From Alphaproteobacteria bacterium (GTDB lineage: Bacteria; Pseudomonadota; Alphaproteobacteria; CALKHQ01), in assembly GCA_965227515.1 (NCBI GenBank), contig CBDDFZ010000002.1:1344001-1408000 (forward strand): 64,000 nt of DNA, read 5' to 3'. A program made the translations under genes and the position numbers. The number at the start of each line of letters is the position of its first letter. The first letter of the stretch is position 1. A model generated the notes under the pieces. The model made no database searches, had not been told where the DNA came from, and saw nothing but the letters and a program-made list of their open reading frames with translations. This document shows, in pieces, positions 1,515-48,931 of this stretch.

Positions 1515-1549
1515 CCGGACAACGCGCACAGGCACGAGAGCGATACGCA

Positions 1550-9192: not shown

Positions 9193-9226
9193 CGCAGACT
9201 TCAGCGTAAGCTGATCCCAATATAGC

Positions 9227-21749: not shown

Positions 21750-26309
<4,560 letters not shown>

Positions 26310-28641: not shown

Positions 28642-29058
28642 ATGGAGCAAATCTCTGCCGAAGACTTTCATGCTGTCGTGGCCGACCGGCCCCGGGTAGC
28701 GGCGGTGCTGCATGCCGGCCCGCTGGCCGATCACGAGGATGTCGCGCGCCTGGTCGAGGAGGTCGAACCGGGCGCGGGCGACTGGGCCTGGCTCGGCGTC
28801 GACACGGACGATGCATCCGACCTCGCCGCCATGTTCGGTGTCGAGGCCGCCGACCCCAACCTGCTTGTGATGCGCGACCGGGTGGTGCTGTACTGCGCCC
28901 CGGTGGTGGCGCGTTCGGCGCCGGAAACGCTGGAGTTGCTGCAGCGCGCGGGCACGCTGGACATGCAGCGGGTCCAGGGTGAAATCCAGGCCAAACGCGA
29001 CAACGAGCAGGCGCTGGCCGGCCGGCGTGTGTGTCCAATGGCGTGGCGGTCGCGCTGA
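28642..29058 (+). CDS. Thioredoxin-like protein lacking the CxxC motif
   Basis: VDTD..SDLAAMFGV...P.LLVMRDRVVLY...LDMQRV resembles the C-terminal half of a thioredoxin; TGATG overlap with next gene. Confidence 0.6.
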   Translation: MEQISAEDFHAVVADRPRVAAVLHAGPLADHEDVARLVEEVEPGAGDWAWLGVDTDDASDLAAMFGVEAADPNLLVMRDRVVLYCAPVVARSAPETLELLQRAGTLDMQRVQGEIQAKRDNEQALAGRRVCPMAWRSR

Positions 29059-30062
29059 TGGCGGCGCCCAAGATCCTGATCAATATCGCCCAGCTCCATG
29101 GCCGGCCGGCACCGTTCCTGCAAAGGCTGCAGGACGCAGGCTTCGACCTGGTTCTGAACGAGACCGGCGCACTGCTGCCGGAGGACGAGTTGATCCGACG
29201 CCTGCCGGGCGTCTACGCCACCATGGCCGGTGGCGAGTTCTACAACGAGCGGGTGTTCGCGGCGGCGCCGGACCTGCGCGTGGTCGCGCGCTATGGCGTG
29301 GGTTACGACAGGGTCGATGTGGACGCAGCCAGCCGGCACAACGTCGCCGTCGCGATGGGCTTCGGCTCCAACCACGAGACGGTCGCTGACTTCGCCTTCG
29401 GCATGGTGCTCACCCTCGGGCAGAACCTGTTAGCGTATCATGCGAAGGTGGCGTCGGGCGGCTGGGGGTCCACCGTTCGCCCCGGCGTTTGGGGCCGCAC
29501 ATTGGGCTTGGTTGGGCTTGGGCGCATCGGCAGGGCGACCGCGCGCCGGGCTGCCGGCTTCAAGATGCGGGTGATCGGATATGACGCGGACCCCGCCACC
29601 GCCGATGCGGCGCGCGCCGACGGCGTGGAGCCGGTGTCGCTGGAAACCGTGCTGGCCGAGGCCGATTTCGTCTCGCTGCATGCGCCGAACCTGCCCACCA
29701 CCCGCAACATGATGAGCACCGCGCAGTTTGCGGCGATGAAGCCGACCGCGTTCCTGATCAACACCGCGCGCGGCGAACTGATCGACGAGACCGCCCTCCA
29801 CCACGCGCTAACCACCGGCGTTATCGCCGGTGCCGGCCTCGACGTCTTTGCCGTCGAGCCGCCGGTCGGCTCGCCGCTGCTGGCATTGCCGAACGTGGTG
29901 CTGGCGCCGCATGCCGCCGGATTGGACCAGGCGTCCGAGCGGATGATGGCTGAGGCCTGCGTCGACAACATTCTGACATTGCGCGACGGCGGCATCCCGA
30001 TAGAGAATCGCCTGCTCAATCCGCAAGTCATGGACGCTTGGCGCGCAGCCGGCGAAATCTGA
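29058..30062 (+). CDS. D-isomer-specific 2-hydroxyacid (phosphoglycerate dehydrogenase-like) dehydrogenase
   Basis: RYGVGYD, GLGRIG, INTARG, LDVFAVEP, APHAAG. Confidence 0.92.
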   Translation: MAAPKILINIAQLHGRPAPFLQRLQDAGFDLVLNETGALLPEDELIRRLPGVYATMAGGEFYNERVFAAAPDLRVVARYGVGYDRVDVDAASRHNVAVAMGFGSNHETVADFAFGMVLTLGQNLLAYHAKVASGGWGSTVRPGVWGRTLGLVGLGRIGRATARRAAGFKMRVIGYDADPATADAARADGVEPVSLETVLAEADFVSLHAPNLPTTRNMMSTAQFAAMKPTAFLINTARGELIDETALHHALTTGVIAGAGLDVFAVEPPVGSPLLALPNVVLAPHAAGLDQASERMMAEACVDNILTLRDGGIPIENRLLNPQVMDAWRAAGEI

Positions 30063-30074
30063 GGAGACGCGAAT

Positions 30075-30851
30075 ATGCTTGAACGTGCGGGCGCGCTGAA
30101 GGCGCGCGCGAAGGCTGGTGACGTGCTGATGGGGTCGTGGGTGGCCGTTCCAAGCCCGATGGTCGCCGAGATCGTGGCCGACACGGGCTTCGACTATGTG
30201 GTCATCGACACCGAGCATGGGCCGACCGGCTATGAGACGTTGGCCAATATGTTGATGGCGTTCCGCGGCGTCGAGACCGTACCGCTGGTGCGCGTGCAGT
30301 CGAACGATCCGGTGCCGATCAAGCGCACGCTGGACGCCGGTGCCGAGGGCATCATGGTGCCCAACGTCCGCTCGGTGGAGGAGGCGAAGGCCGCCGTTGC
30401 CGCATGCCGTTATCCGCCGGACGGCGAACGCGGCTTCGGGCCGTTGCGCGCGTCGGGCTACTACGCCCACGCCGACGCCTATGTGCCGGCGGCCAACGCA
30501 AACGTCATTGTCGCGATCCAGATCGAGGACAAGCGCGCGGTCGAGGACATCGACAACATCCTCGACGTGCCTGGTATCGACATCGTGGTGGTCGGCCCCA
30601 ACGATATGTCCGGCACCTACGGCCTGTTCCGCCAGCACGACCACCCGACGATGGTGGAGGCGCGCAAGACGGTGATCGCGGCGGCGCGGCAGCGCGGCCT
30701 GCCAGTGTGTCCCGGCATTCCGGTCAGCCCGGACGTGCTGAAGGCGCAGGTTGCGGAGGGCTACACGGTGCTGTTCGCGGCGGCTGATGCCGGCGCGCTG
30801 GTCGAGGGGCTTGCGGTGGCGCTCGCCAATGGCCGGGCGGCAACGTCGTAA
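30075..30851 (+). CDS. HpcH/HpaI aldolase family protein
   Basis: IDTEHG, LDAGAEGIMVP, YPPDGERG, QIED, VGPNDM. Confidence 0.92.
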   Translation: MLERAGALKARAKAGDVLMGSWVAVPSPMVAEIVADTGFDYVVIDTEHGPTGYETLANMLMAFRGVETVPLVRVQSNDPVPIKRTLDAGAEGIMVPNVRSVEEAKAAVAACRYPPDGERGFGPLRASGYYAHADAYVPAANANVIVAIQIEDKRAVEDIDNILDVPGIDIVVVGPNDMSGTYGLFRQHDHPTMVEARKTVIAAARQRGLPVCPGIPVSPDVLKAQVAEGYTVLFAAADAGALVEGLAVALANGRAATS

Positions 30852-31092: not shown

Positions 31093-31851
31093 TCAGGCAG
31101 GCCGACGCGGGATCACCCAGTTCTGCCGCTCCTTGCGCGCGATGAAGTCGACCAGGTAGTCGACCAGCACCTGCTTCATGCGCTGGCCCTTCTCGCGGGT
31201 GGCCTTGCTGCCGTCGCCGGTGGCGCCCAGGTCGGTCAGTTCCTGGTAGTTCCAGAACTCCTGGATCTGGTCGTCCTTCTCGTCGACCATGCCGCGTGCC
31301 CGGTCCGGGTGGGTGAGGGCGGGGATCAACTCCATCGCCAGCGAGGTTTCCGCCTCTCCGCCATGGCCATAGCCCTCGTAGGCGTCCCACATCTCCTTGG
31401 GCAGGATCGACAGCGCGGTCGTCCACCAGCGTTCCATCACCGCGATGGCGACGTCCGGGTGCCGGAGCTTGATATCCTGGGCGGCGACACCGATGCACGG
31501 CACGTTGCCGTCGTGGCCGTTGATGACGACGATCTTCTTGAAGCCCCAGTCGATGACCGAGTTCAGCACGTCGCGGTAGACCGCGATGTTGGTGTCGTGG
31601 CTGACCGAGATCGACATCGGCTGGTGGCGGTAGTGCAGGCTCATGCCGAACCAGAGCGGCGGCAGCACCAGGGTGCGCGGCACCTTCTCCGCCACGGCCA
31701 GCGCCAGGTGGTGGGCGATGAACGCATCGGTGCCGAAGGGAAGGTGGTCGCCATGCCCCTCGCACGAGCCGATCGGCATCAACACCTTGTCGAAATCGCC
31801 GGCCGCGAGATCGGCGGTGTTCAGTTCCTCGTAGCGGAAGGTCTGGGCCAT
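31093..31851 (-). CDS. Creatininase-family amidohydrolase
   Basis: PIGSCEGHGDHLPFGTD, INGHDGN, HGGEAETS. Confidence 0.9.
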   Translation of the reverse strand: MAQTFRYEELNTADLAAGDFDKVLMPIGSCEGHGDHLPFGTDAFIAHHLALAVAEKVPRTLVLPPLWFGMSLHYRHQPMSISVSHDTNIAVYRDVLNSVIDWGFKKIVVINGHDGNVPCIGVAAQDIKLRHPDVAIAVMERWWTTALSILPKEMWDAYEGYGHGGEAETSLAMELIPALTHPDRARGMVDEKDDQIQEFWNYQELTDLGATGDGSKATREKGQRMKQVLVDYLVDFIARKERQNWVIPRRPA

Positions 31852-31872: not shown

Positions 31873-32751
31873 CTACTTGCGGCGGGGCCTTGGTGGGGCG
31901 CCGAACAGAACCTCGCGCACGGCCGACCAGCCGGCCCGCCACGCGGCTTGCAGCGACACGCCGTCGACGGCGACGAAGCGCAGCGACAGGCCACAGCCGC
32001 CGGGCAACGGCGACACGCCGGCGTAGACATCGGGCAGTGCGGCAATGGCGTCGTCGATTGCGCCTTGTAGCGCGGGCAAGTCGGCTGTGGGCGCCCACAG
32101 GAACACGGTGCCGCAGCTGGTGAACGCCGGGTCGCGGCCGATGGACATGGCCTGGAATGCGGTGCCCGACATCGCCTGGCGGTCGCGGGCGAGGAGGGCG
32201 CCGCCGTCGTCCTCCAGCAGCACATCGGTGGTGACCTGACGGAACGGCGCGGCACAGCCTTCGGGGCCGCCGTCGGGATCGTGGGCGATGAAGGATTCGC
32301 CAACCAGCACCACCGCATCGCGCGCCGCGCGGACCCGCGTGGTGCTGACCAGAGCGGCGCCGGGGAACAGGATCGTCGCTTCCGGCAGGTACTCCAGCAC
32401 CGCGCCGGGGCCGGCCTCCAGGGTGGTGGCGATACGCGCCTCGCCGCCGGTCATCGCGTGCACGATGGTCGAGGCCTGGCTGGTCAGGTGCACGGCGGCG
32501 CGCGCCTCGGCCGCGAAGTCCATGGTCAGCCGGTCGTGCTCGAACACCCCGCCGGAGACCGATTGCAGGTACATGGTCGCCATGCCCGCCGGGTCGCCTT
32601 CGTCGCGGTGCGGCCGGCAGATGTGGAACGGGTAGCCCGAGCGCTGGTGCGCGATGAAGGTGTGGCCGTCCGGCGCCCGCCGGAACGCGAGGTCGATGGC
32701 GCCGGTGCGGGCGGTGGCTGCGTCCGCCTGTTTGACGGAGACCACGGTCAT
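31873..32751 (-). CDS. ureD: Urease accessory protein UreD
   Basis: YPFHICRP, SGGVFEHD, TSQASTIVH, LEYLPEATILFPGA; position in the ure operon. Confidence 0.85.
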   Translation of the reverse strand: MTVVSVKQADAATARTGAIDLAFRRAPDGHTFIAHQRSGYPFHICRPHRDEGDPAGMATMYLQSVSGGVFEHDRLTMDFAAEARAAVHLTSQASTIVHAMTGGEARIATTLEAGPGAVLEYLPEATILFPGAALVSTTRVRAARDAVVLVGESFIAHDPDGGPEGCAAPFRQVTTDVLLEDDGGALLARDRQAMSGTAFQAMSIGRDPAFTSCGTVFLWAPTADLPALQGAIDDAIAALPDVYAGVSPLPGGCGLSLRFVAVDGVSLQAAWRAGWSAVREVLFGAPPRPRRK

Positions 32752-32783
32752 GGCGCGTGGTCTCCGACCACAGAACCCGCTCC

Positions 32784-32871
32784 GCCATGCCCGCACTTGC
32801 TGCGGGCATCCACGAAATGTCGGCGAAGCCGACAACAAGACGTGGATGCGCGGATCAAGTCCGCGCATGAC
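32784..32871. repeat. CGTC-tagged REP doublet, copy 2 (between ureG and ureD)
   Basis: gccATGCCCGCA-CTTGC-TGCGGGCATccacg ... cgtggATGCGCGGA-TCAAG-TCCGCGCATgac. Confidence 0.88.
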
Positions 32872-32899: not shown

Positions 32900-33553
32900 T
32901 CACGCCGCCATGTCCTCCAGCAGCACGTCGCGGCGCAGCAGGTCGACGATCTGGTCGATGCCCTCGCCGGCGCGGCAGTTGGTCAGCGCCAGCGGCCGGC
33001 CCTCGCGCACCTCTCGCGCCTCCGCCACCATGCGGTCGAGGTCGACGCCGACATGGGGCGCCAGGTCGGTCTTGTTGATCACCAGCAGGTCGCAGAGCGT
33101 CGGCCCCGGCCCGCGCTTGCGCGGAATGTCGTCGCCGCCGGCCACGTCGATGACGAACAGCCAATAGTCGACCAGGTCGAGCGAGAAGGTGGAGGCGAGA
33201 TTGTCGCCGCCGCTCTCGATGATCACCAGGTCGAGCTTGGGCAGCGCATGCTCCAGGAAATCCGCCGCCTCGATGTTCATCGACGGGTCCTCGCGGATGA
33301 CCGTGTGCGGGCAGGCACCCGATTCGACCGCCAGCACCCGCGACGGGTCGATCAGCCCGCTGTTCTTCAGCCGCTCGGCATCCTCCTTGGTCACCAGGTC
33401 GTTGGTCACCACCGCGACCTCGATCCCGCGCGCCGCAAGCGCCGGCACCAACCGCTCGATCAGCGCGGTCTTGCCGGAGCCGACCGGCCCGCCGATGCCG
33501 ACCCGCGCCGCTCCGGCCGCCTTGGTGGCGGCGTTGTTGCTGGTGGGGCTCAT
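32900..33553 (-). CDS. ureG: Urease accessory GTPase UreG
   Basis: [24 protein letters not shown]; ATGA overlap with the ureC stop. Confidence 0.95.
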
Positions 33554-35262
33554 CGCAGCATGTAGCGCTGGGTGAGGGGCAATTCCTTCGCCGGGTCGCA
33601 CATCGCCACCTCGCCGTCGACGATGACGTCGAAGGTCTGGGGATTGACCTCGATCTTCGGCAGCGCGTCGTTGTGCAGCATGTGGGTCTTGTTGAGCTTG
33701 CGCACCTTGGACGCGGGCAACGTCATCTTGGTCAGGCCCAACGAGCCATGGATGTCGGCATCCATCGCCGCCTGGTTGACGAAGCAGGCGCTGAGCGCCT
33801 TCTTCGCCTCGCCGAACGCGCCCCATTGCGGGCGCATCAGCAAGGGCTCGCAGGTCATCAGCGACGCCGCGCTGTCGCCCATGGCGCCCCACGCGATGAA
33901 ACCGCCCTTCACCACCAGCTCCGGCTTGATGCCGAAGAAGCCCGGCCGCCACAGCACCACGTCGGCGAGCTTGCCGCTCTCCAGCGAGCCGACATGGGCG
34001 TCGATGCCGAAGGTGCGCGCGGCGTTGATGGTGTACTTGGCGATGTAGCGCTTGATGCGCTCGTTATCGCCCATGCTTGTCGCCTCGCTGTCCAGCCGGC
34101 CGCGCTGCTTCTTCATCTTGTCGGCGAGTTGCCAGGTCCGGCAGATCACCTCGTTGATGCGGCCCATGCCCTGGCTGTCCGACCCGAGCATGGCGATCGC
34201 CCCCAGGTCGTGCAGAATGTCCTCAGCCGCCATCGACTGCGGGCGGATGCGGCTTTCGGCGAACGCCACGTCCTCCGGCACCGCCGGGTTCAGGTGATGG
34301 CACACCATGGTCATGTCCAGGTGCTCGTCGAACGTGTTCACGGTGTAGGGGTTGGTCGGGTTGGTCGACGATGGCAGGCAATTGGCCTCGCCGGCGACCC
34401 GGATGATATCCGGCGCGTGGCCGCCGCCGGCACCTTCCGTGTGATACATGTGGATGGTGCGGCCGTTGATGGCGGCCAGCGTGTCCTCCAGATACCCGCT
34501 CTCGTTCAGGGTGTCGGTGTGGAGCTGGACCTGGAAGTCCAGCTCGTCGGCGACCGACAGGCAGGTGTCGATCACCGCCGGCATCGCGCCCCAGTCCTCG
34601 TGGATCTTCAGGCCCAGGCAGCCGCCGGCCATCTGGTCGTAGAGCGAGCGCGGCTTCGACGTGTTGCCCCGTCCCAGGAAGCCGAAGTTGATCGGCCACT
34701 GTTCGGCGGCCTGTAGCATCTTGCCGACGTTCCAGGCGCCGCCACAGTCGATGCCGACCGTGATCGGCCCCAGCGAGCCGCCGATCATGGTGGTGATGCC
34801 GGACGAGATCGCGTGCTCGCACAACTGCGCGCTGTCGAAGTGCACGTGGACGTCGATGCCGCCGGGGGTCGCGATCAGCCCCTCGGCATCGCGCACCGTG
34901 GTGGCGGCGCCGACGATCAGGTCGCTGTCGACATTGTCCATGGTGGCGGGGTTGCCGGCCTTGCCGATGCGCACGATCCGCCCGTCCTTGATGCCGATAT
35001 CGCCTTTCACGATGCCAAGCACCGGGTCGATGACCACGGCGTTGCAGATCAGCATGTCGAGCGCGCCGGCCGCGCTGTCATAGCCGGCGGTCAGACCCAG
35101 CCCGTCGCGCAGCGTCTTGCCGCCGCCGTGCAGGCTCTCGTCACCCAGGAAGTTGTAGTCGTGCTCGACCTCGGCCAGCAGGTCGGTGTCGGCCAGCCGC
35201 ACCGCGTCCCCGGTGGTCGGCCCGTACATCGCGGCATAGTCCGCGCGGCTCATCTTCGCCAT
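33550..35262 (-). CDS. ureC: Urease alpha subunit homologue (divergent active-site pocket)
   Basis: [52 protein letters not shown]. Confidence 0.93.
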
Positions 35263-35265
35263 GGC

Positions 35266-35964
35266 TCAGGCCCCCTTGAAGCCGCGGGCGCGGGCACGCG
35301 CCAGTGCAGCCTCTTTCTGCAGCTCCGATTTCGTCGAGCCCTCGGTCAACCGGTTCAGGCCGGACATCTCGCCCGTGCCGCCGAAGCCGCACAGATTGAC
35401 CTCGCGCGCCTCGCCCGGCTCGAAGCGCACGGCGGTGCCGGCCGGAATATCCAGGTGCATGCCGAAGGCGGCGGCACGGTCGAAGTCGAGCGCGCGGTTG
35501 GCCTCGAAGAAGTGATAGTGGCTGCCGACCTGGATCGGCCGGTCGCCGGTGTTGGTGACCTTGACCTTTGCGGTCGGCCGGCCGGCGTTGAGCTGATGAT
35601 TGCCCTTGCCGGCGATGATCTCGCCCGGTGTCACCGCACCCTTCGGCGCCTTCTTCTTGCCGGGGCGGATCGGGTCGTGGACCGTGACCAGCTTGGTGCC
35701 GTCCGGGAAGGTCGCCTCGACCTGCAGCATCGGCATCAGGTCGGCGACGCCCGGCATCACGTCATCGCTGGTCAGGATGGTGGACCCGTAGCTGATCAGG
35801 TCGGCCACGCTGCGGCCCTCCCGCGCGCCCTCCAGAATCTCGTCGGAGATGTAGGCAATCGCCTCGGGGTGGTTCAGCTTCAGGCCCTTGTCGCGGCGGC
35901 GCCGGGCCATTTCGGCGGCGGTGAAGATGGTCAGCCGCTCCATCTCGGTCGGCGTCAGTAGCAT
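35266..35964 (-). CDS. ureAB: Fused urease gamma/beta subunit
   Basis: [11 protein letters not shown]...LNHPEA...[17 protein letters not shown], then PGEI...[19 protein letters not shown]...[11 protein letters not shown] in one frame. Confidence 0.95.
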
Positions 35965-36010: not shown

Positions 36011-36691
36011 TCATGTCGCGAACAGGCGCACGGTCTGGTTCGGGTGGCGCATGGCGGCGATCTCCGCCAGCGGCGTGAAGCTGCTGATATCGGCGGGTGC
36101 CGGCGGTGCCGTGTCGACCATGGTTGCCAGGTCGTGGTGCAGGTCGCCGCGCAGGCGCTGGGCGGCGGCGTGACCGATGATGTTGAGCCGCACCGCCGCG
36201 CTGAGGATGCCGGCGACCAGGCCATGGGCCGCCATCGCCGCGGCAGTTCGCGCGCCCAGCCCGGTGCCGTGCCAGACGACGCCTTGCACCACCGGAAGAT
36301 GTCCGCGCAGGCCCCCGTCGCGCACGGCATTTTGAAAGGCCTGCGCGCCCGGTGTCTGCAGGCGCGCATGGATCGACAACAGGGCGGCCCCGGCCCGGCG
36401 CGAGCCCTCGCGCAGTTCCGCCGGCATGGTCATCCGCTCGACGAGATCGTCCAGTTCGGCCAGCTTGGCCTCATCCCCTGCGGCGGCGTGGGCCGCGGCC
36501 ATGACAGGGCGGTCGAACGATTGCCAGCGGCCATGCAGTTGGCTGGACAGGAAGGCCCGCACGTCTTCCTCCGACGACAGCAGTCCGTCGCGGTGCAGCG
36601 GCTCCAGGCCCCACGAGAATGAGCCCGCCCCGCTGGGAAACAGGCTGTCGCCGTGTTGCAGGGCGACCAGCAGTTCGGCATCAAGGCTCAT
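36011..36691 (-). CDS. ureF: Urease accessory protein UreF
   Basis: [27 protein letters not shown]-terminal H...RLFAT. Confidence 0.88.
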
Positions 36692-37133
36692 CTTGCACAA
36701 TCTCTATGCGGCCACTGCCCAATAGAGGGGCAAGTCTGGCCAGGTAGGCGTCGGCGTCGCCATCCTGCGCCACGTTCAGCACATCGCCGTCGAATGTGAC
36801 GCGCCAATGCATGTTTCCCGCCAGGTAGCCGAGTTCCAAGGCCGCCGATGCCACGGTCGCACGCACCCGGATGACCGGCTGCGCGGTCATGCGCACGACA
36901 ATCGCCTGCTCATTCGTTAGGCGCAGGATGGCGCCATTGCACAATTTTTCATCACGAGGCAGGGCAATGGCGCACGCGGTGCCCTTGTCGGTGGTCGCCC
37001 GCAATCGGTGACGGCTGAGATCGGCTGGCGCCAAGGCGATGTATTCGACCGCATCGGCATGGCCAAGCTTGTGTAGCGCGTCGGCCATGTCGTCGTCGGT
37101 GGCCCGGCCCAGAACCTCGGTCAACAGCAGCAT
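36681..37133 (-). CDS. ureE: Urease accessory protein UreE (no His-rich tail)
   Basis: RHRLRATTDKG...LPR, LGYLAGNMHW; stop overlaps the ureF start. Confidence 0.8.
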   Translation of the reverse strand: MLLLTEVLGRATDDDMADALHKLGHADAVEYIALAPADLSRHRLRATTDKGTACAIALPRDEKLCNGAILRLTNEQAIVVRMTAQPVIRVRATVASAALELGYLAGNMHWRVTFDGDVLNVAQDGDADAYLARLAPLLGSGRIEIVQDEP

Positions 37134-37315: not shown

Positions 37316-37330
37316 TGGCACATTTCTTGA
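37316..37330 (+). promoter_or_regulatory. Candidate sigma54 (-24/-12) promoter for the transporter-amidase arm
   Basis: TGGCAC-ATTTC-TTGA matches TGGCAC-N5-TTGC except at the last base. Confidence 0.4.
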
Positions 37331-37503: not shown

Positions 37504-38775
37504 ATGACCAAGTTGCACACGAATATCGGCCGCCGGAAGCTGCTGAAGGGCTCGGCGCTGGCCGGTGCCGCAGCCGCTTTTCCGACGCCTTACTTCTTCA
37601 CCCGTTCGGCGGCTGCGCAGGATGCCATTGAGCTTGGCGTGCTGTTCTCCCTGACCGGCGGTCTGTCGATCATCGAGAAGTCGCTGGCCGATGCCACCTT
37701 GATGGCGATCGACGAGGTGAATGCCGAGGGGGGCATCAACGGCGTCATGATCAATCCGATCGTCGAGGACGGCGCTTCGGATCCGCAGACGTACAACGAG
37801 AAGGCCAGCAAGCTGGTCCTTCAGGACCGCGTGCCGACCGTGTTCGGCTCCTACACCTCTGCCAGCCGCAAGGCCGTGCTGCCGGTGTTCGAGCGCCGCA
37901 ACAGCATGTACTTCTATCCGACGTTCTATGAGGGTTTCGAATGCTCCAAGAACGTGGTCTACACCGGCGCGGTGCCGAACCAGCAGCTTTCCAACTACAT
38001 CCCATGGATCATCAACGAACTCGGCAAGACCAAGTTCTTCATCGTCGGGTCGAACTACATCTACCCGCGCGAGATGGCCAAGGTCTGCAAGATCCTGATC
38101 GAGGAGAACGGCGCCGAGTGGATCGCCGACGAGTATCTGGAACTCGGCCACTCCGAATGGGGTGCCATGGTCTCCAAGATCAAGGACTCCGGCTGCGACG
38201 TGGTGCTGTCCAATGTCGTCGGCGACTCGATCGTGGCATTCTACCGTGAGTACAAGAACCAGGGCCTGACCCAAGAAGCGTTGCCGATCTGCGCCACCGT
38301 GACCTCGGAGATCGAGATCGCCGCTATGGGCCCCGAGTTTGCGGCCGGCAGTTTCTCCTCGTTCCCGTACTTCCAGGCCATCGACACGGACATCAACCAA
38401 ACGTTTGTCGAGAACTATCGTGCGTATGTGAACGATCCGGCTGCGGTGACCCACGCCGCGCTCGAGTCGTCCCATTTCGAGGTGCACCTGTGGGCGCAGG
38501 CGGCGCGGACTTTGAACGGCGACATCACACCGGACAACATCCGCGAGGCGATCAAGGGCCAGGAAATGGACGCAGCGAATGGCCATGTCCGCATCGCGCC
38601 GGAGAACCTGCATACGTATATGACCCCGCGTATCTCGCAGTGGAACGCCGAGGGCCAGGGCGTGATCGTGGACGAGTATCCTGAGCCCATCATGCCGCTT
38701 CCCTATTCGGCCTATGGCGAGGCAGAGGACAATCTTTTCTGCCTCGAGAGCGGGCTGGATACGTCCAAGCTCTAG
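37504..38775 (+). CDS. Amide/urea ABC transporter substrate-binding protein (AmiC/UrtA/FmdD family), Tat-exported
   Basis: GRRKLLK twin-arginine signal, TSASRKAVLPVFE, YEGFECS, GSNYIYPR. Confidence 0.9.
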   Translation: MTKLHTNIGRRKLLKGSALAGAAAAFPTPYFFTRSAAAQDAIELGVLFSLTGGLSIIEKSLADATLMAIDEVNAEGGINGVMINPIVEDGASDPQTYNEKASKLVLQDRVPTVFGSYTSASRKAVLPVFERRNSMYFYPTFYEGFECSKNVVYTGAVPNQQLSNYIPWIINELGKTKFFIVGSNYIYPREMAKVCKILIEENGAEWIADEYLELGHSEWGAMVSKIKDSGCDVVLSNVVGDSIVAFYREYKNQGLTQEALPICATVTSEIEIAAMGPEFAAGSFSSFPYFQAIDTDINQTFVENYRAYVNDPAAVTHAALESSHFEVHLWAQAARTLNGDITPDNIREAIKGQEMDAANGHVRIAPENLHTYMTPRISQWNAEGQGVIVDEYPEPIMPLPYSAYGEAEDNLFCLESGLDTSKL

Positions 38776-38789
38776 TAGGGGCTAACGAC

Positions 38790-38819
38790 ACCGGGCCGGT
38801 TCTGACAGACCGGCCCGGT
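38790..38819 (+). other. Intercistronic stem-loop after the substrate-binding protein gene (mRNA stabiliser or attenuator)
   Basis: accgggccggt-N8-accggcccggt, 11-bp perfect stem. Confidence 0.6.
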
Positions 38820-38836
38820 CTTCGTCGGGACCACGC

Positions 38837-39772
38837 ATGGAAGTCTTCTTCATTGGATTGAGCCTCGGCTCGATCCTGCTGCTCATCGCGCTTGGCCTGT
38901 CCATCACCTATGGCGCCATGGGGGTCATCAATATGGCCCATGGCGAGATGGTGATGATCGGCGCCTACTCCACCGTGATGGTGCAGATGTACCTTGGCCT
39001 CAACATGATCTACGCCATCCCGGTGGCGTTCCTGGTTGCCGCCCTGCTCGGGCTGCTGATCGAGCGGGTCGTCGTACGCCGGCTTTATGGCCGTCTGCTC
39101 GACACGTTGCTGGCCACGTGGGGCATCGGCATCCTGATCCAACAGGCGGTACGACTGGAGTTCGGCCTCGCGCTGTTCGACATCCGCATGACATTTCTCG
39201 GCCGCGAGATTTACAGTCTGACTGACGCGCACATTCCCGGGCTCGGCACGGGACTGCAGAATGTCGATGTGCCGTCGGTGTTGAGCGACCCGATCCCGAT
39301 CGGCGACTTCGAACTGCAGCCGTACCGCAGCTTCATTATCCTGGTGACCATCGCGCTGTTGGTGCTGACATGGTGGATCATGTACCGCACCTCCATGGGC
39401 CAGCAGGTCCGCGCCATCATGCGCAATCCGAGCATGGCGGCGAGCTGCGGCATCAACGTTAAGCGCGTCAACGCTCTCACCTTTGCCTATGGCTCCGGGT
39501 TGGCCGGCGTGGCGGGCGTGATGATGTCCGGCTTCAAGACCGTTTCGCCCGACATGGGGACGTCGATGGTGGTCGACGGATTTCTCGTTGTCGTGGTCGG
39601 CGGCGTTGGCAGCCTGCTCGGCAGTCTGGTTGCGTCCGTCGGTCTTGGGCAGGTCAATGGTATCTTCGCGTTCTTTACGAACGACATCCTGGCGCGCGCA
39701 CTGATCTTCGGACTGGTCATCATCATCATCATGATCCGGCCGAAGGGCCTGTTCTCGTTCAAGGGGCGCTAG
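38837..39772 (+). CDS. Amide/urea ABC transporter permease, UrtB-like
   Basis: GLSITYGAMGVINMAHGE, LDTLLATWG, IRPKGLF. Confidence 0.9.
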   Translation: MEVFFIGLSLGSILLLIALGLSITYGAMGVINMAHGEMVMIGAYSTVMVQMYLGLNMIYAIPVAFLVAALLGLLIERVVVRRLYGRLLDTLLATWGIGILIQQAVRLEFGLALFDIRMTFLGREIYSLTDAHIPGLGTGLQNVDVPSVLSDPIPIGDFELQPYRSFIILVTIALLVLTWWIMYRTSMGQQVRAIMRNPSMAASCGINVKRVNALTFAYGSGLAGVAGVMMSGFKTVSPDMGTSMVVDGFLVVVVGGVGSLLGSLVASVGLGQVNGIFAFFTNDILARALIFGLVIIIIMIRPKGLFSFKGR

Positions 39773-39773
39773 C

Positions 39774-41363
39774 GTGCCAGCGACCAAGGTCCGTCTAGAT
39801 TATGCGGCGTACGCGATCGTCATCGTGGCCATGCTGCTGTTGCCGTCGTTCATGGACGACGTCTTCTGGCTGAACCGCATCTCCAAGTATCTCGTCTACG
39901 GCATGCTGGGCGTGGCGATTGCCATGGCCTGGGGCTATGCCGGCGTGCTGAACCTGGGCCAGGGCCTGTTCTTCGGGCTCGGCGCCTACATGCTGGCGAT
40001 GTCGCTGAAGCTGGCCAGTCCGACCAGCCTAGCCCAAGGCTCCGACCAGCCGATCCCCGATTTCATGATGTGGACTTCGGAGCCCGGGGCGGAGCTTGAC
40101 CTGTGCTGCATCACCGGCGGTTCGTTCCTGTGGATCCCGTTCGAGAATCAGTGGTTCGGCGTGTTCATGGGTATCGTGCTGCCGGTGCTGGTGGCGACCC
40201 TGGTCGGCTATGTGCTGTTCCGGCTGCGCATCTCCGGCGTGTTCATCGCAATCATCACCCTGGCGCTGGTGCTGCTGGTCCGGCTGATCGTCATCGACGC
40301 CCAGCCGGTCACCAACGGCTTCAACGGCCTGACCGACCTTGGCTGGTTCACGGTCAACGATTTCGAGCTCGACCCCTATTTCGTCGAGACCTACTACGTC
40401 ATCGCCGTCGTGACGGCGCTGGTGCTGATCTTTGCGCGATGGCTGGTCAGCACGCGCGCGGGCCTGATCCTGCAGTCGATCCGCGACGACGCCAACCGCG
40501 CTCGCTTCCTGGGCTTCAACGTCGCCCACTACCAGACCTTTTTCTTCGCGGTCTCGGCCGGCATCGCGGGGCTGGCCGGCATGCTGTTCGTGATGGCATC
40601 CGAGTTCGCGTCGCCCACGTTCATGGACCTGGCCTTCTCCATCACCATGGTGGTTTGGGCCGCGGTCGGCGGGCGCCATTCGCTGCTGGGCGCGTGCATC
40701 GGCGCCTTCCTGGTCAACTTCATCGAGGACACGGTCAGCGAGACCGACGCGCTGGTGGAGGCGTGGAAAGCGATCATCGGCTTGCTGTTCGTGCTGGTGG
40801 TGCTGTTCCTGCCGCGCGGGCTGGCCGGCTTCGCCAACGATGTGGTCGACCGGTACTTGCGGTTCGTACGCACGCCTCATGCGGCGCGGCGCCTGCCCTA
40901 TCCGCGCGTGGCCGCGCTCATCTGCATGGCCTTCGTGGTGACCATGCTGCTGCCGTGGATGTCATTGAACGAGGAGGCGAACTCGATGTTCGATGCCGCG
41001 TTCCTCGGCTTCCCCGGAGGCGGATGGTTCGGCCTGGCGATGCAGATCGCGATCATCCTGGCCATCCTGATCGGCATCTTCGGCGCCATCATCATGGCGT
41101 CGGAAAAGACCCTGCGCAGGGCGGCCGCCATAGCACCGGGCGTGTACATGCTGGCCGTGGTGCTGGTGTTCGCCATCGTTCTGTTTGCTGCCGTGCTGGC
41201 CGTTGAAGGCATGCAAGCGGAGTACGGTTTCTTCCTCGGTGCGGCAGTGGCCATAGGGCTGATCGCTTACGGATTGCTGGCACCCGCCCAGCCGCATGCA
41301 GTCACCGAAACGCAGCAAGACGCCGGCCCGGCAATCTCTGACGAGAGCAAGGCTGATGCGTGA
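39774..41363 (+). CDS. Amide/urea ABC transporter permease, UrtC-like, with extra C-terminal membrane domain
   Basis: WGYAGVLNLGQGLFFGLG, IPDFM, TNGFNGLTD, WAAVGGR, LPRGLAG; about 170 additional residues, largely hydrophobic. Confidence 0.88.
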   Translation: MPATKVRLDYAAYAIVIVAMLLLPSFMDDVFWLNRISKYLVYGMLGVAIAMAWGYAGVLNLGQGLFFGLGAYMLAMSLKLASPTSLAQGSDQPIPDFMMWTSEPGAELDLCCITGGSFLWIPFENQWFGVFMGIVLPVLVATLVGYVLFRLRISGVFIAIITLALVLLVRLIVIDAQPVTNGFNGLTDLGWFTVNDFELDPYFVETYYVIAVVTALVLIFARWLVSTRAGLILQSIRDDANRARFLGFNVAHYQTFFFAVSAGIAGLAGMLFVMASEFASPTFMDLAFSITMVVWAAVGGRHSLLGACIGAFLVNFIEDTVSETDALVEAWKAIIGLLFVLVVLFLPRGLAGFANDVVDRYLRFVRTPHAARRLPYPRVAALICMAFVVTMLLPWMSLNEEANSMFDAAFLGFPGGGWFGLAMQIAIILAILIGIFGAIIMASEKTLRRAAAIAPGVYMLAVVLVFAIVLFAAVLAVEGMQAEYGFFLGAAVAIGLIAYGLLAPAQPHAVTETQQDAGPAISDESKADA

Positions 41364-41405
41364 TCCGGGAACATTTGCGCGGGCGATGAACCCGGGGGTG
41401 CGGTC

Positions 41406-42188
41406 ATGAGCGACACGTCCGGCATGACGGGCGGCACGACGGGCGGCACGGCGCTGAAGGTCGACCAGCTCGAACTCGACTACGGCGGGTTCAAGGCGGT
41501 CGACGGCTTCTCCATGGAGGTGGCCGAGGGCGAGCTTCGCGTCCTGATCGGCGCCAATGGTGCCGGCAAGACCACGCTGATGGACCTGATCAGCGGCAAG
41601 ACCAAGTCGACCGCCGGCAAGGTCTTTCTGCACGGCACCGACATCACCAACCGGCAGGAGCACCAGATTGCGCGCGCCGGTGTCGGCCGCAAGTTCCAGA
41701 TCCCGAGCGTGTTCCGCGACCTGTCTGTGCGCCAGAATTTGAGCGTCGCCGCGACCGAGAGCAAGAGCGTGCTCGGCAATATCGGCCTTGGCCTGCGCCG
41801 CGCGCGCCGCGACGAGGTCGACCGCATCCTGGGCCTGATCGAGCTGCGCGAAAAGGCCGACGATGCCGCCAGCACCCTGTCGCATGGCGAGACCCAGTGG
41901 CTGGAACTCGGCATGCTGATGATCCAGGACCCGAAGATCATCCTGCTCGACGAGCCGACCGCCGGCATGACCCATGCGGAGACCCTGAAGACGTCGCGCA
42001 TCGTCAACGCCATGAAGGGCGAGCACACCATCCTGGTCGTCGAGCACGACATGAGCTTCGTCAAGGAGATCGCCAACACCATCACCGTCATGCACCTGGG
42101 CAAGCGGCTGGCGGAAGGCACCGTCGACGAGATCGAGAACGATGCGGCCGTGAAGCAGGCCTATCTGGGCAGCGGGGGCATCCACTGA
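41406..42188 (+). CDS. ABC transporter ATP-binding protein, UrtD-like
   Basis: [32 protein letters not shown]. Confidence 0.9.
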
Positions 42189-42880
42189 TGCTGTCGCTGG
42201 ACCACGTCAACAGCTTCTACGGGCGCAGCCAGATCCTGCACGATCTGTCGCTGGAGGCGCGCGAGGGCGAGATCGTCGCCATTCTGGGCCGCAATGGCGT
42301 CGGCAAGACCACCTTGATGAAAACCATCATGGGGCTGACCGACCGCATCGAAGGCACGATCCGGCTGCAGGACGTCGACCTGAGCCGGCGGTCGACGTTC
42401 GACCGGGCCCGCGCCGGCATCGCCTATGTGCCCCAGGGGCGCGAGATCATTCCCGATTTCACGGTGCGCGAGAACATCCTGATGGGGTGCTTCGCCCGCC
42501 CCGGCGAGCCCCGGCGGGTGCCCGACCTGGCGATGGAGCTGTTCCCCTATCTGCGCGAGAACATGGGCAAGCCCGGCGGTCTGCTGTCGGGCGGCCAGCA
42601 GCAGCAACTGGCCATTGCGCGCGCGTTGGCGGCGAAGCCGACCGTGCTGTTGCTCGACGAGCCGACCGAGGGCATCCAGCCCAACATCGTCGAGCTGATC
42701 GAGGGCGCGATCCAGACACTGAACCAGACCCTGGGGCTCACGATCTTGTTGGTGGAGCAGAACGTTGCCTTTGCCCGGTCGGCGGCGCATCATTTCGCGA
42801 TGATGGTCAAGGGCAGCGTGGTGGCGGCGGGGTCCGTCGCGGAACTGACCGATGCAGTGGTCGCGGAGCACATGATCTAG
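42188..42880 (+). CDS. ABC transporter ATP-binding protein, UrtE-like
   Basis: TGATG overlap; [36 protein letters not shown]. Confidence 0.9.
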
Positions 42881-42975: not shown

Positions 42976-44016
42976 ATGTATCACGGTGACATTTCCAGCA
43001 GTAACGACACGGTCGGCGTGGCCGTCGTCAACTACAAGATGCCGCGCATGCACACCAAGGACGAGGTGCTGGCCAATGCGCGCAACATCGCCTCGATGAT
43101 GGAAGGCATGAAGATCGGCCTGCCCGGCATGGATCTGTGCATATTCCCGGAATATTCGACCCACGGCATCATGTACGACGAGAAGGAGATGTACGAGACC
43201 GCCTCGTCGGTGCCGGGCGAGGAGACCGAGATTTTCGCGGCCGCCTGCCGGAAGACCAAGTGCTGGGGCGTGTTCTCGCTGACAGGCGAGCGCCATGAGG
43301 AGCACCCGAACAAGGCGCCGTACAACACCCTGATCCTGATGAACGACCAGGGCGAGATCGTGCAGAAGTACCGCAAGATCATGCCGTGGGTGCCGATCGA
43401 GGGCTGGTATCCGGGCAACTGCACCTACGTGACCGAGGGTCCGAAGGGCATGAAGGTCAGCCTGATCATCTGCGATGACGGCAACTATCCGGAAATCTGG
43501 CGCGACTGCGCGATGAAGGGCGCCGAACTGATCGTGCGCTGCCAGGGCTACATGTACCCGGCGAAGGACCAGCAGGTGGTGATGGCCAAGGCGATGGCGT
43601 GGGCCAACAACACCTATGTGGCGGTCGCCAACGCGTCGGGCTTCGACGGCGTCTACTCGTACTTCGGCCACTCCGCCATCGTCGGCTTCGACGGCCGCAC
43701 GCTGGGCGAGTGCGCGGAGGAGGAGAACGGCATCCAGTACGCGCAGCTTTCCGTCAGCGCCATCCGTGACGCGCGGGCCAACATGCAGTCGCAGAACCAC
43801 CTGTTCAAGCTGCTGCACCGTGGCTACACCGGCATGATCAATTCCGGCGACGGCGACCGTGGCCTGGCCGAGTGCCCCTACGATTTCTACAAGAACTGGA
43901 TCACCGATCCGGAGGGCACCCGCGAGGCGGTCGAGGCAATCACCCGCAAGACCGTGGGCACCGAGGAATGCCCGATGGACGGCATTCCGAACCAGAAAAC
44001 GGCGACCCACCGCTAG
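42976..44016 (+). CDS. amiE: Aliphatic amidase (nitrilase superfamily)
   Basis: [24 protein letters not shown]; Glu-Lys-Cys triad FPEYS / YRKI / ICDD; RBS GAGGAG. Confidence 0.95.
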
Positions 44017-44264: not shown

Positions 44265-45062
44265 ATGTCGATCGAGCAATATCTGATCGCCGAGGAGCCC
44301 TACTACCGGCCCATCGGCAACGAAGTGGCGCTGTTCGAGGCCGCCTACAGGCAGCGCATGCCGATGATGCTGAAGGGCCCCACCGGCTGCGGCAAGACCC
44401 GGTTCATCGAGCACATGGCCTGGCGGCTGAAGAAGCCGCTGATCACCGTCTCCTGCCACGAGGACATGACGGCATCTGACCTGGTCGGCCGCTTTCTGCT
44501 GGAGGCCGACGGCACGGTGTGGCGCGACGGTCCGCTGACCACGGCGGTGCGCGAGGGCGCGATCTGCTATCTCGACGAGATCGTGGAGGCGCGGCAGGAC
44601 ACCACGGTGGTGATCCACTCGCTGACCGACGAGCGCCGCGTGCTGCCGCTGGAAAAGAAGAACGAGCTGGTGCGCGCGCACCCCGACTTCCAGCTCGTCA
44701 TCTCTTACAACCCCGGCTACCAGAGCGTGCTGAAGGACCTGAAGGAGTCGACCAAGCAGCGCTTCGGCGCCATCGAATTCGGCTATCCCGACGCCGCCAT
44801 CGAGGCCGAGATCGTCGCCCACGAGGCCGAGGTCGACAAGGACCTGTCGCAGCGCCTGATCACCATTGCCGAGCGGTCGCGCAACCTGAAGGGCCACGGC
44901 CTGGAAGAGGGGGCATCGACCCGCATGCTGGTCCACGCCGCGCAACTGACGGCGGAGGGCGTGCCCCTGGGCGAGGCCTGCCAGGTGGCCCTGGTGCTGC
45001 CGATCACCGACGACGAGGACATGCGCGACGCGTTGTCCTCCGCCATCTCGGCATGCACCTAA
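44265..45062 (+). CDS. CbbQ/NirQ/NorQ-family MoxR AAA+ ATPase
   Basis: [55 protein letters not shown]. Confidence 0.95.
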
Positions 45063-47407: not shown

Positions 47408-48931
47408 ATGACCTTGCGCCGCCCATCCATCGACGACCTGATCACCATCGGCGAACGCGCCCACATCAACCTCAACGACGACGAGTTGGAGGTGCTGCCC
47501 GCCATCGTCGACGCCGTGCTTGAGGGCTACGACGCGCTGGACCAGTACCCCGACCCGGTGCGCAAGGTGACGCCAGCGGTGCGCGTGCCCGGCCCCCGGC
47601 CAACGCCGGAGGAAGACCCGCTGAACGGCATCGTGCGGACCTGCAGCGTGCAGGCGGTGCCGGAGGTGAACAACGGCCCGCTGTCGGGCAAGTCCATCGG
47701 GGTCAAGGACACCATTGCCGTCGCCGGCATCCCGATGACCTGCGCGTCGCGGCTGCTCTACGACTACACGCCGGATATCGACGCCACCATCGTGGAGCGG
47801 ATGCTGAAGGCCGGTGCCCACATCACCGCCGTGCTGAACACCTGTGACTTCGCGTTCTCCGGCGGCGGCCACACCTCCACCTACGGGCCGGGGTGCAATC
47901 CGGCCGCGCCTGACCATGCCGCCGGCGGCTCGTCCTGCGGTTCGGCGATCGCGCCGGCGGAGGGCGTCGTCGATATCGCGCTCGGCGGCGACCAGGGCGG
48001 CTCGATCCGCATTCCGGCGTCGTGGTCAGGTGTTGTCGGCCACAAGCCGACCCATGGCCTGGTGCCCTATACCGGCATCGTCGGCTTCGACCAGACCATC
48101 GACCACATCGGCCCGATGGCGATGACGGTGGAGGACTGCGCCCTCTTGATGGGCGTGATCGCCGGCAAGGACGAGAGCGCCATCGACCCGCGCCAGCCCG
48201 ACACTATCGACGTGCCGGACTATGTCGGCGGGCTGACCGGCGACATAAGCGGCCTGAAGATCGCAGTGGTTCAGGAAGGCTTCGGCGGGCCGGAGGCGAT
48301 GGCCCAGGTCGACGAGGCGGTGCGCGCGGCAGCGTCTAAGCTCGGCGGGATGGGCGCCACCGTGGAAGAGGTCTCGGTGCCGCAGCACATGATGGGCGTG
48401 CCGTTGTGGAACTGCATCGCCATCGAGGGCGGGGTCGACAGCTTCTATCACGGCCACACCAACTACGGCACCAAGGGCTGGTACAACCCGCGCCTGATCT
48501 CGGCGATGTCGCGGGCGATCAAGACCAATGGCGGCGACTTCTCGCCCACGGCCAAGCTGGGCGTGCTGGTCTACCACTACATGAAGGACCAGTATCACGG
48601 CGTGTTCTACGGCCGGGCGCAGAACCTCGCCCGCCAGCTCACCAAGGCCTATGACGAAGTGTTCGCCGACTTCGACCTGGTGCTGATGCCGACAACGCCG
48701 CAGACGGCGCACAAGATGCCGGCGATGCCGGAGGAGGACCGCGCCGAGCATATCGGCCAGGCGCTCAACATGGTGCGCAACACCTGCGTGTTCGACATGA
48801 CCGGCCACCCGTCGATCTCGGTACCGGTGAAGGGCGCGGGCGACCTGCCGATCGGCCTGATGCTGACCGGCCGCCAGTTCGACGACGCGACCGTGCTGCG
48901 CGCCGCCCACGCCTACGAGCAGGGGGCTTAG
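47408..48931 (+). CDS. Amidase-signature family amidase
   Basis: VKD catalytic Lys, GGSSCGS, GGDQGGSIRIPA, GHKPTHGLVPY. Confidence 0.93.
   Translation: MTLRRPSIDDLITIGERAHINLNDDELEVLPAIVDAVLEGYDALDQYPDPVRKVTPAVRVPGPRPTPEEDPLNGIVRTCSVQAVPEVNNGPLSGKSIGVKDTIAVAGIPMTCASRLLYDYTPDIDATIVERMLKAGAHITAVLNTCDFAFSGGGHTSTYGPGCNPAAPDHAAGGSSCGSAIAPAEGVVDIALGGDQGGSIRIPASWSGVVGHKPTHGLVPYTGIVGFDQTIDHIGPMAMTVEDCALLMGVIAGKDESAIDPRQPDTIDVPDYVGGLTGDISGLKIAVVQEGFGGPEAMAQVDEAVRAAASKLGGMGATVEEVSVPQHMMGVPLWNCIAIEGGVDSFYHGHTNYGTKGWYNPRLISAMSRAIKTNGGDFSPTAKLGVLVYHYMKDQYHGVFYGRAQNLARQLTKAYDEVFADFDLVLMPTTPQTAHKMPAMPEEDRAEHIGQALNMVRNTCVFDMTGHPSISVPVKGAGDLPIGLMLTGRQFDDATVLRAAHAYEQGA

Follow-up and report, generated by a model that had tools for sequence, protein, structure and literature searches.

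The protein described here is a variant UreC (urease alpha subunit) encoded within a 64,000-nucleotide stretch of an alphaproteobacterial genome (Alphaproteobacteria bacterium, lineage CALKHQ01; GenBank assembly GCA_965227515.1, contig CBDDFZ010000002.1, positions 1,344,001 to 1,408,000 of the forward strand), which is referred to as the window and numbered from its first letter. This UreC retains the catalytic residues of nickel ureases and carries a remodelled substrate pocket that it shares with a large group of relatives, and its gene is located next to an ATP-binding cassette (ABC) importer with an amide-type binding protein and an aliphatic amidase gene. The best explanation offered by the comparative evidence is that the variant subfamily acts as the hydrolase of a nitrogen-scavenging module of the amidase-operon type, and not of the urea module which consists of UrtA and urease. 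The preferred substrate, on a judgement that is evenly balanced, would be a small primary amide, with formamide as the first candidate followed by acetamide-like compounds, and urea would be at most a secondary substrate.

The gene and the motifs that bear on its function are located as follows:

33550..35262, minus strand: ureC paralogue, variant urease alpha subunit of 570 amino acids (TIGR01792)
34825..34848, minus strand: HVHFDSAQ, residues 139-146, nickel ligands His139 and His141 followed by the clade-specific Asp143
34732..34782, minus strand: remodelled hydrophobic loop, residues 161-177, which replaces GGGTGPxxGTxATTCTPGxW, the Ala167 loop (HMMER, MAFFT)
34594-34611, minus strand: LKIHED (translation)
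34510-34521, minus strand: HTDT (translation)
34432-34443, minus strand: HTEG (translation)
34294-34302, minus strand: flap CHH (translation)
34243-34254, minus strand: SRIR (translation)
34159..34179, minus strand: DSQGMGR, residues 362-368, nickel ligand Asp362 retained and Gly365 in place of Klebsiella Ala363

The ureC product scores 824.4 bits against the NCBIfam equivalog TIGR01792 (cut-off 680), and the canonical UreC of the same genome 980.5 bits. The di-nickel ligands His139, His141, Lys219, His248, His274 and Asp362 are all present and invariant in alignment A1, with Lys219, inside LKIHED, as the lysine that is predicted from the sequence to be carbamylated. The substrate His and Asp (HEDWG), HTEGAGGGH, Gly277, the flap Cys-His-His and the flap Arg (ESRIR) are likewise kept, and every motif that a first-pass annotation of this DNA had quoted for intact nickel ligands, carbamylated lysine, flap and SRIR can be located in the translation. 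The AlphaFold2 model, computed from a 44-sequence alignment, has a predicted local distance difference test (pLDDT) score of 88.9 and a predicted template modelling score of 0.93, with the block containing the rebuilt loop at a pLDDT of about 73, and Foldseek places it on solved ureases with template modelling scores of 0.95-0.97 and root-mean-square deviations of 1.5-1.9 Å, which identifies a urease fold; sequence identity to real ureases is 55-58%. The dedicated maturation genes ureD, ureE, ureF and ureG all lie beside ureC, and the best explanation is that the ureC product is the catalytic subunit of a working amidohydrolase of the urease type that depends on nickel and would be matured by its own UreE, UreF, UreG and UreD. 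By profile, ligands, flap and maturation genes the protein belongs to the urease alpha family, and it departs from that family in the elements that recognise an amino group of urea.

The loop that replaces the Ala167 loop is shorter by three residues, a deletion seen both in the HMMER alignment to jack bean urease and in MAFFT, and it lacks the ATT, exactly as had been read from the sequence alone. The same annotation had noted DSQGMGR for DSQAMGR, which is correct for the full motif at 34159-34179 (34168-34179 encodes DSQG only), and HVHFDSAQ for HIHxICPQ, which is also found, at 34825-34848 and so outside the range 34168-34782 that was quoted for it. The residue equivalent to Ala167 depends on the alignment, being Gly170 by HMMER with jack bean urease and Val169 by MAFFT; the alanine and its threonine-rich surroundings are lost either way. 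When 66 variant UreC sequences are compared with 22 canonical ones, the elements that recognise the NH2 group of urea (the GTxATT loop and DSQAMGR), which are missing from the UreC of the window, separate the two sets completely (66/66 against 22/22). Within the Ala167 loop the fixed differences are Thr to Leu164, a deletion of two columns in this alignment, Ala to Val169, Thr to Gly170 and Thr to Ile171. Near the HxH motif they are Ile to Asp143 and Gln to Leu147, near the DSQ motif Ser to Gly360 and Ala to Gly365, and two further pairs change from Ile-Pro to Leu468-Met469 and from Met-Phe to Gln479-Trp480. Ile to Arg124 is the lone isolated fixed difference, all others falling in five clusters. 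Position 143 is Asp in 66/66 variant and Ile in 20/22 canonical sequences, and position 365 is Gly in 66/66 variant and Ala in 22/22 canonical sequences. On one side of the pocket polar residues have thus given way to hydrophobic ones, and the new state has been conserved since.

As described for the urease of Sporosarcina pasteurii, the Ni(2)-bound, non-leaving nitrogen of urea is held by the backbone carbonyls of Ala170 and Ala366, His222 gives a hydrogen bond to the urea oxygen, and the distal, leaving nitrogen is held by Gly280 and Ala366 and served by the flap residue His323 (PMC7433671). This description bears out the earlier proposal that Ala167 and Ala363 are residues of the urea pocket and that both are changed here. 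The variant keeps the groups that serve the oxygen and the leaving nitrogen, and both elements that hold the non-leaving NH2 are altered.

The remodelled pocket is not peculiar to the window, and its recurrence goes far beyond chance. Among the 120 nearest database relatives, which are 84-91% identical, DSQGMGR is found in 120/120 and the short loop in 119/120. Eighty genome loci were retrieved with the UreC of the window as query, 70 of them at 64.9% identity or more and 10 at 60% or less, with none between; DSQGMGR is present in 70/70 of the former and DSQAMGR in 10/10 of the latter, and HVH(F/H)DS occurs in all 66 variant sequences that cover the region. The classical motifs are present in 52/52 canonical UreC proteins from bacteria and archaea, save that the loop of one of them (locus L131) was not read. 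The UreC proteins of ammonia-oxidising archaea have DSQAMGR, a strand 1 that starts with HIH or HVH and the long GGGTGPxxGTxA(T/V)T loop in 10/10 cases, and 20 further canonical alphaproteobacterial proteins have DSQAMGR and HIH or HVH in 20/20 and the long loop in 19/20, L131 being the one that the search pattern missed.

Proteobacterial carriers of the variant include Bradyrhizobium, Rhodopseudomonas, Methylorubrum, Methylobacterium, Aminobacter, Pseudomonas syringae, Burkholderiales and Methylophaga, and further carriers are found among cyanobacteria, Solirubrobacterales/Thermoleophilia and in one thaumarchaeal metagenome-assembled genome. Identity is 75-91% across alpha-, beta- and gamma-proteobacteria and 65-70% in cyanobacteria and actinobacteria. 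The thaumarchaeal contig (L069) is the only archaeal carrier and has CHN in place of CHH at the flap, and horizontal transfer or a binning error is possible in its case. The idea that the variant is the usual urease of ammonia-oxidising archaea is rejected, as 10/10 of those sampled are canonical and L069 is the only archaeal genome with the variant.

A quick maximum-likelihood analysis of 53 sequences groups the canonical ureases in one clade, with a support of 98 in the approximate likelihood ratio test of the Shimodaira-Hasegawa type (SH-aLRT), and the variants from proteobacteria in a second (96); the branching order among the variant lineages is not resolved, so that a single variant clade is not established. 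Of the separate clade that the first-pass annotation had suggested looking for, the position of the variants outside a supported canonical clade stands, and their union into one clade is not supported by this tree. A search for representatives at 50% identity was dropped as a definition of the clade because it lumps the variant together with canonical ureases, and it brought up deeper lineages. These urease-like lineages (P0125-P0145, 39-52% identical) keep the nickel ligands and have Gly at the Ala363 position and short loops; the flap Cys-His-His is mostly absent, all are annotated 'urease subunit alpha', and all come from uncultured organisms, actinobacteria and others. Literature searches found no paper on the variant clade or on a urease paralogue with another substrate, and a review of cyanobacterial genomics, in the part that touches on the subject, says merely that duplicated ure genes deserve study (PMC6737895).

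Other types of UreC paralogue with intact ligands are also encountered, in loci L083-L086 (genomes G059, G055 and G054) and L087-L088 (G064 and G074), with loops such as GGGMSHPFLVVDVGSP and GGTMGPLFAIDCGGPW, and a genome can hold up to four UreC homologues. Their neighbours include a creatinase-like gene (L083), an arginase-family gene (L084) and a gene resembling the beta subunit of N,N-dimethylformamidase (L087). On their sequences, these paralogue types look like a radiation of the pocket loop.

The variant ureC gene is part of an operon that runs leftward in the order ureE-F-AB-C-G-D and then a creatininase-family gene, and a five-gene Urt-like importer (37504-42880, plus strand) is divergent from it. 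The genes of this region are:

31093..31851, minus strand: creatininase-family gene (Pfam Creatininase, 199 bits)
31873..32868, minus strand: ureD, true start uncertain (Pfam UreD, 103.8 bits)
32900..33553, minus strand: ureG (TIGR00101, 241 bits)
35266..35964, minus strand: fused ureAB, gamma-beta subunit (NF009671, 354 bits, cut-off 243)
36011..36700, minus strand: ureF (Pfam UreF, 117 bits)
36681..37133, minus strand: ureE, open reading frame extending to 37241 with Met37 as the likely start (NF009752, 165.8 bits, cut-off 162)
37504..38775, plus strand: UrtA-like substrate-binding protein with an amide-type pocket (TIGR03407, 375 bits, below the cut-off of 492.75)
38837-39772, plus strand: urtB-like ABC permease gene (this and the next three from a Pfam BPD_transp_2/ABC_tran scan of the urtB-E block)
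39774-41363, plus strand: urtC-like ABC permease gene
41406-42188, plus strand: urtD-like ABC ATPase gene
42188-42880, plus strand: urtE-like ABC ATPase gene
42976..44016, plus strand: amiE, aliphatic amidase (NF009802, 694.9 bits, cut-off 427)
44265-45062, plus strand: amiB-like AAA+ protein
45089-47362, plus strand: VWA-domain protein
47408..48931, plus strand: amidase of the amidase-signature family (NF005565, 589.7 bits, cut-off 545)

The start codon of ureG (33551-33553) overlaps the stop codon of ureC (33550-33552). The amidase-signature gene is found in 4/70 related loci and so is not conserved with the cluster. The creatininase-family gene, which lies 21 bases downstream of ureD, was considered as a clue to the pathway and dropped, as it is absent downstream of ureD in a 93%-identical relative (G001); a match to the family occurs in 1/70 related loci (L046), where it is 31% identical and lies about 3 kb beyond ureD.

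The substrate-binding protein of the importer provides a further view of the ligand. The crystal structure and mutagenesis of UrtA from Prochlorococcus marinus, as far as they are described in PMC10392092, indicate that Gln144 and Asn246 hydrogen-bond the nitrogen atoms of urea, that Trp120 positions Asn246 and that the W120A change abolishes urea binding, while mutation of Ser122, Gln144, Tyr190 or Asn246 leaves binding greatly weakened or lost; the contact residues are reported there to be strictly conserved among UrtA homologues. These contacts were mapped through PDB alignments onto all Urt-like proteins in the loci and are given in P. marinus UrtA numbering. The window protein, with 375.2 bits, stays below the TIGR03407 cut-off, and at Trp120, Ser122, Tyr141, Gln144, Glu146, Tyr190, Asn246 and Ser274 it has Tyr, Ser, Tyr, Phe, Glu, Tyr, Val and Val, four of the eight being replaced (Trp120 by Tyr, Gln144 by Phe, Asn246 by Val and Ser274 by Val); its nine-position pocket string reads Tyr, Ser, Tyr, Phe, Glu, Tyr, Tyr, Val, Val. 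In contrast, 15/15 binding proteins encoded beside canonical ureases, as well as the true UrtA of the same genome, have Trp-Ser-Tyr-Gln-Glu-Tyr-(Phe/Tyr)-Asn-Ser.

The variant loci yield 39 binding or sensor proteins, 30 of which were taken as transporter-linked and 9 of which are shorter and AmiC-like. Trp120 is found in 0/39, with Tyr, Met or Phe instead, Asn246 is replaced by Val in 39/39, and Gln144 is found in 1/39, the other 38 having Tyr, Phe, Leu or Trp. Seven of the binding proteins (L017, L020, L022, L030, L031, L037 and L053) score 506-554 bits, above the UrtA cut-off, and are nevertheless without Trp120, Gln144 and Asn246; the curated UrtA threshold therefore fails to separate urea-type from amide-type pockets. 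The acetamide-binding AmiC of Pseudomonas aeruginosa has Tyr83, Ser85, Tyr104, Pro107, Glu109 and a Val at the matching places. As a control, four AmiE clusters with no urease in the fetched stretch give 8/8 binding or sensor proteins with a Tyr...Leu...Val pocket, and the binding protein of an FmdA-AmiE cluster (L116) keeps Trp120, with Phe and Val in the places of Gln144 and Asn246. The importer proteins lack the contacts to one NH2 group of urea and therefore fit a ligand without that group, of the formamide or acetamide type. Enzyme and importer have thus each lost groups that recognise one urea amino group and have gained hydrophobic residues instead.

The proposal that the substrate is different from or larger than urea consequently divides into two parts. 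That it is different is favoured by the amide-type binding proteins, by regulators of the AmiC/AmiR type and by the nearby AmiE; that it is larger is not, since the loop gains Leu, Val and Ile. Because the loop gains bulk and the binding proteins lose their contacts to one NH2, the ligand is probably of the same size as urea or smaller.

Gene context was compared between 42 long variant loci, which have at least 7 kb on both sides, and 29 canonical loci. An amiE gene is present within 9 kb in 18/42 of the former, 17 of which have it oriented like the ure genes, compared with 0/29 of the latter. These amiE genes are 78-88% identical to that of the window and in alpha- and beta-proteobacterial variant loci often end about 100 bases before ureE; in two cyanobacteria, where no match to ureE was obtained, amiE immediately precedes the structural ure genes. 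The amiB gene and the VWA gene each occur in 15/42 long variant loci, where they co-occur with amiE, and AmiR/ANTAR antiterminator genes are found upstream in 20/70 variant loci. Aminobacter aminovorans has the order amiC-like, amiR, binding protein, permeases, ureE-F-AB-C-G-D and hupE, with no other hydrolase in the run and a formamidase-family gene elsewhere in the genome. In the genome of P. syringae pv. cilantro neither an AmiE above the cut-off nor an FmdA was found. Taken together, the indirect evidence of context would point away from urea hydrolysis as the physiological function.

The locus of P. syringae pv. cilantro (L037) also holds two Rfam livK motifs, at 1537-1620 (minus strand) and 2215-2298 (plus strand), which flank the gap between the AmiC-like and binding-protein genes, and a match to the model of the Helicobacter '5' ureB small RNA' at 9151-9449 (minus strand), antisense inside ureC, with 45.9 bits against a gathering score of 40.

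The association with AmiE is also visible at the level of whole genomes. Among 401 genomes sampled evenly across the class, 101 have a UreC homologue and 15 the variant, which is about 15% of those that bear UreC. AmiE, taken as a match at E of 1e-100 or below, is present in 11/15 variant genomes compared with 4/386 others; related genomes are not independent, and the 11 span seven families. Canonical UreC is also present in 9/15 variant genomes, and in a second set of 36 carriers reached through the loci 27 have canonical UreC too. UrtA above the family cut-off was found in 0/11 genomes that encode the variant and no other UreC homologue. The genome of the window itself has a canonical urease on another contig, arranged as ureD-A-B-C ... 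E-F, with classical motifs and a UreC that is 56% identical, which confirms that the window's gene is a urease paralogue, as had been supposed; a true UrtA (581 bits against the cut-off of 492.75) is encoded about 59 kb from ureC.

The system can be set against several that are known. With the canonical nickel ureases of Klebsiella aerogenes, S. pasteurii and jack bean (EC 3.5.1.5) the variant shares the fold, the metal and catalytic residues and the UreDEFG genes. It differs in the loop, which is three residues shorter and hydrophobic, in the change of Ala363 to Gly, in the Asp that follows HxH, in the second-shell pairs Leu-Met for Ile-Pro and Gln-Trp for Met-Phe, in the fusion of the gamma and beta subunits and in the order ureE-F-AB-C-G-D, and in the loci examined a urea-type UrtA is never adjacent to it. 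With the amiEBCRS operon of P. aeruginosa the window shares amiE and an amiB-like gene, and related loci have AmiC-like and AmiR/ANTAR genes directly upstream; the binding pockets match that of P. aeruginosa AmiC at Tyr83, Ser85, Tyr104, Glu109 and Val. Unlike amiEBCRS, the module contains a five-gene Urt-like importer and a full urease-type set, with the VWA gene after amiB, and in several variant loci the urease paralogue is the sole hydrolase; neither AmiC nor AmiR, the two other components sought, has a match in the window.

A second parallel is provided by clusters that combine FmdA and AmiE. In Bradyrhizobium japonicum blr0968-0973 encode a Urt-like importer, a formamidase and AmiE, and the authors of SIMBAL, in the part of their paper that deals with it, argue that the ligand is an amide and not urea (PMC3098086). 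The same arrangement is present in genome G490, whose binding protein shows the Phe and Val replacements of Gln144 and Asn246 too, and such clusters agree with the variant loci in having a Urt-type five-gene importer beside short-chain amidases, whereas the variant loci hold a nickel urease-type enzyme in the place of FmdA. The fmd system of Methylophilus is presumably of this cluster type as well, combining a Urt-like transporter with a formamidase. The analogy is one of position only: the notion that the variant replaces FmdA is rejected, as both are present in G300, G490, G340 and G294. Paralogous urease sets beside a primary urease are otherwise known as the iron urease UreA2B2 of Helicobacter mustelae and as ure2 of Brucella, which differ in being specialised by metal or regulation and, as described, act on urea or are inactive. 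UreB2 of H. mustelae (3qga_C) matches the variant UreC no better than ordinary ureases do.

From the conserved catalytic set, the clade-specific remodelling and the gene context we infer a substrate and a mode of binding. The Urt-like ABC system next to the operon, which with AmiE would form part of an island for scavenging nitrogen, would take up an amide, whose carbonyl oxygen would bind Ni(1) and His221. The bridging hydroxide would then attack, and the amide nitrogen would depart as NH3 with the assistance of the flap residue His322, while the hydrogen or alkyl group that takes the place of the Ni(2)-bound NH2 of urea would lie against the Leu164, Val169 and Ile171 loop and Gly365. Of the alternative substrates of jack bean urease formamide is said to be the best, its main limitation being a very high Michaelis constant, and Helicobacter pairs AmiE with a dedicated formamidase. 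On a slightly more tentative footing than the nature of the substrate, the clade may be the first case of a urease-family enzyme with a natural substrate other than urea, that is, a nickel formamidase or short-chain amidase matured by UreDEFG proteins of its own, served by an amide importer and under AmiC/AmiR control.

A number of observations weigh against the amide reading, and the explanation that profits most from them, which we regard as possible though doubtful, is that the variant is a genuine urease isozyme with urea as its physiological substrate, an old side lineage in which the Ala167 loop differs and the reaction is the same. On this reading the isozyme would be co-expressed with AmiE because a single importer of the Fmd type brings in both short-chain amides and urea; the pocket might then tune affinity or tolerate amide or hydroxamate analogues that occur in such a setting. 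UreC passes the equivalog cut-off for urease alpha (824 against 680 bits), keeps every catalytic residue and shares 56-58% identity with real ureases. No other UreC homologue accompanies the variant in 6/15 carriers of the class sample; in the second set 9/36 carriers lack any UreC at 60% identity or below, 7 of them having the variant alone and 2 only further paralogues at 62-65%, and all such carriers would therefore be without a urease if the variant is not one. The amiE gene of the same operon already covers C2-C4 amides, so that a urease would complement AmiE more obviously than would a second amidase, and a costly nickel enzyme for a job done by metal-free amidases is not parsimonious. 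At least four genomes encode a full-length FmdA as well as the variant, and the window itself gives no match to the AmiC sensor or to AmiR (ANTAR). The short loop and the Gly at the Ala363 position may be ancestral and not a new adaptation, given that the deep urease-like lineages share both, and sister paralogues with other loops adjoin creatinase-like and arginase-family genes, which are urea-producing. In seven to eight variant loci the score of a binding protein exceeds or approaches the UrtA cut-off. The FmdDEF system of Methylophilus methylotrophus reportedly carries urea along with short-chain amides, and for that reason the binding-protein pocket may not exclude urea. What counts against an isozyme is that even the high-scoring binding proteins are without Trp120, Gln144 and Asn246, that Trp120 and Asn246 are kept by all the binding proteins beside canonical ureases and by none beside variants, and that all canonical sequences read, from archaea to plants, have the canonical loop unchanged. 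In addition, most carriers (27/36 and 9/15) hold a canonical urease too, the genomes that have the variant alone have no UrtA above the cut-off, and the regulators are of the amide-sensing AmiC/AmiR type.

That the remodelled wall houses the substituent of a substituted urea or an analogue, such as N-methylurea, hydroxyurea, an acylurea, biuret or guanidine, which is the form that the proposal of a larger substrate would take, is improbable. Gly365 in place of Ala and the shorter loop could open up space, Asp143 could pair with a polar or cationic group, several carriers are methylotrophs (Methylorubrum, Methylobacterium, Methylophaga, Aminobacter and Chenggangzhangella) and a related paralogue type adjoins the N,N-dimethylformamidase-beta-like gene; set against this, the loop gains bulk through Leu, Val and Ile, the partner binding pockets resemble that of the acetamide-binding AmiC, and no conserved neighbour gene that would make or use substituted ureas or analogues was found across the variant loci. 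Guanidine is rejected more specifically, as searches of the window and of seven related loci revealed no riboswitch, whether for guanidine or of another kind, and a literature search gave no link from urease paralogues to guanidine. It would be most surprising if the gene were a catalytically dead or decaying duplicate. Some second urease clusters are reported to be inactive, Brucella ure2 being the example given, but here the reading frame is intact, all ligands and the full accessory set are present, relatives remain 75-91% identical in proteobacteria and 65-70% in cyanobacteria and actinobacteria, and the operon structure with its translational coupling is conserved.

Several features of the window stand apart from this argument. 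The UrtC-like permease is 529 amino acids long; its transporter domain spans residues 36-343, and the C-terminal remainder of about 185 residues is hydrophobic. Between ureE and the binding-protein gene, TGGCACATTTCTTG at 37316-37329 (plus strand) resembles a sigma-54-type -24/-12 promoter element, which would fit control by nitrogen limitation; it is a single pattern match that may be due to chance. A stretch at 21750-26309 (plus strand) contains the gene for the large subunit of glutamate synthase, and a 2-hydroxyacid dehydrogenase and HpcH-type aldolase gene pair is located at 29031-30851 (plus strand), beyond the creatininase-family gene; neither is conserved with the cluster.

Textbooks present urease as the model of a nickel enzyme with high substrate specificity, and in soils, oceans and guts ureC serves as a marker gene for the use of urea. 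If the variant does act on amides, part of the environmental ureC signal that is taken for urease would have been misread, and a new nickel-dependent route for amide nitrogen would be added to several percent of the sampled alphaproteobacteria as well as to beta- and gamma-proteobacteria, cyanobacteria and actinobacteria. The loop region around Ala167 and Ala363 would then be the element that makes urease specific for urea, which would be useful for enzyme engineering and inhibitor design. The corresponding change in the Urt-like binding proteins provides a simple sequence rule, Trp/Gln/Asn as opposed to Tyr/aromatic/Val, by which urea importers can be told from amide importers. Should the variant be a normal urease instead, the 'invariant' urea-binding loop would be shown to be dispensable. 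The further loop variants would, if the amide reading is right, represent a small radiation of nickel amidohydrolases with different substrates, all annotated 'urease', and the comparative evidence assembled here could overturn the assumption that every ureC encodes a urease.

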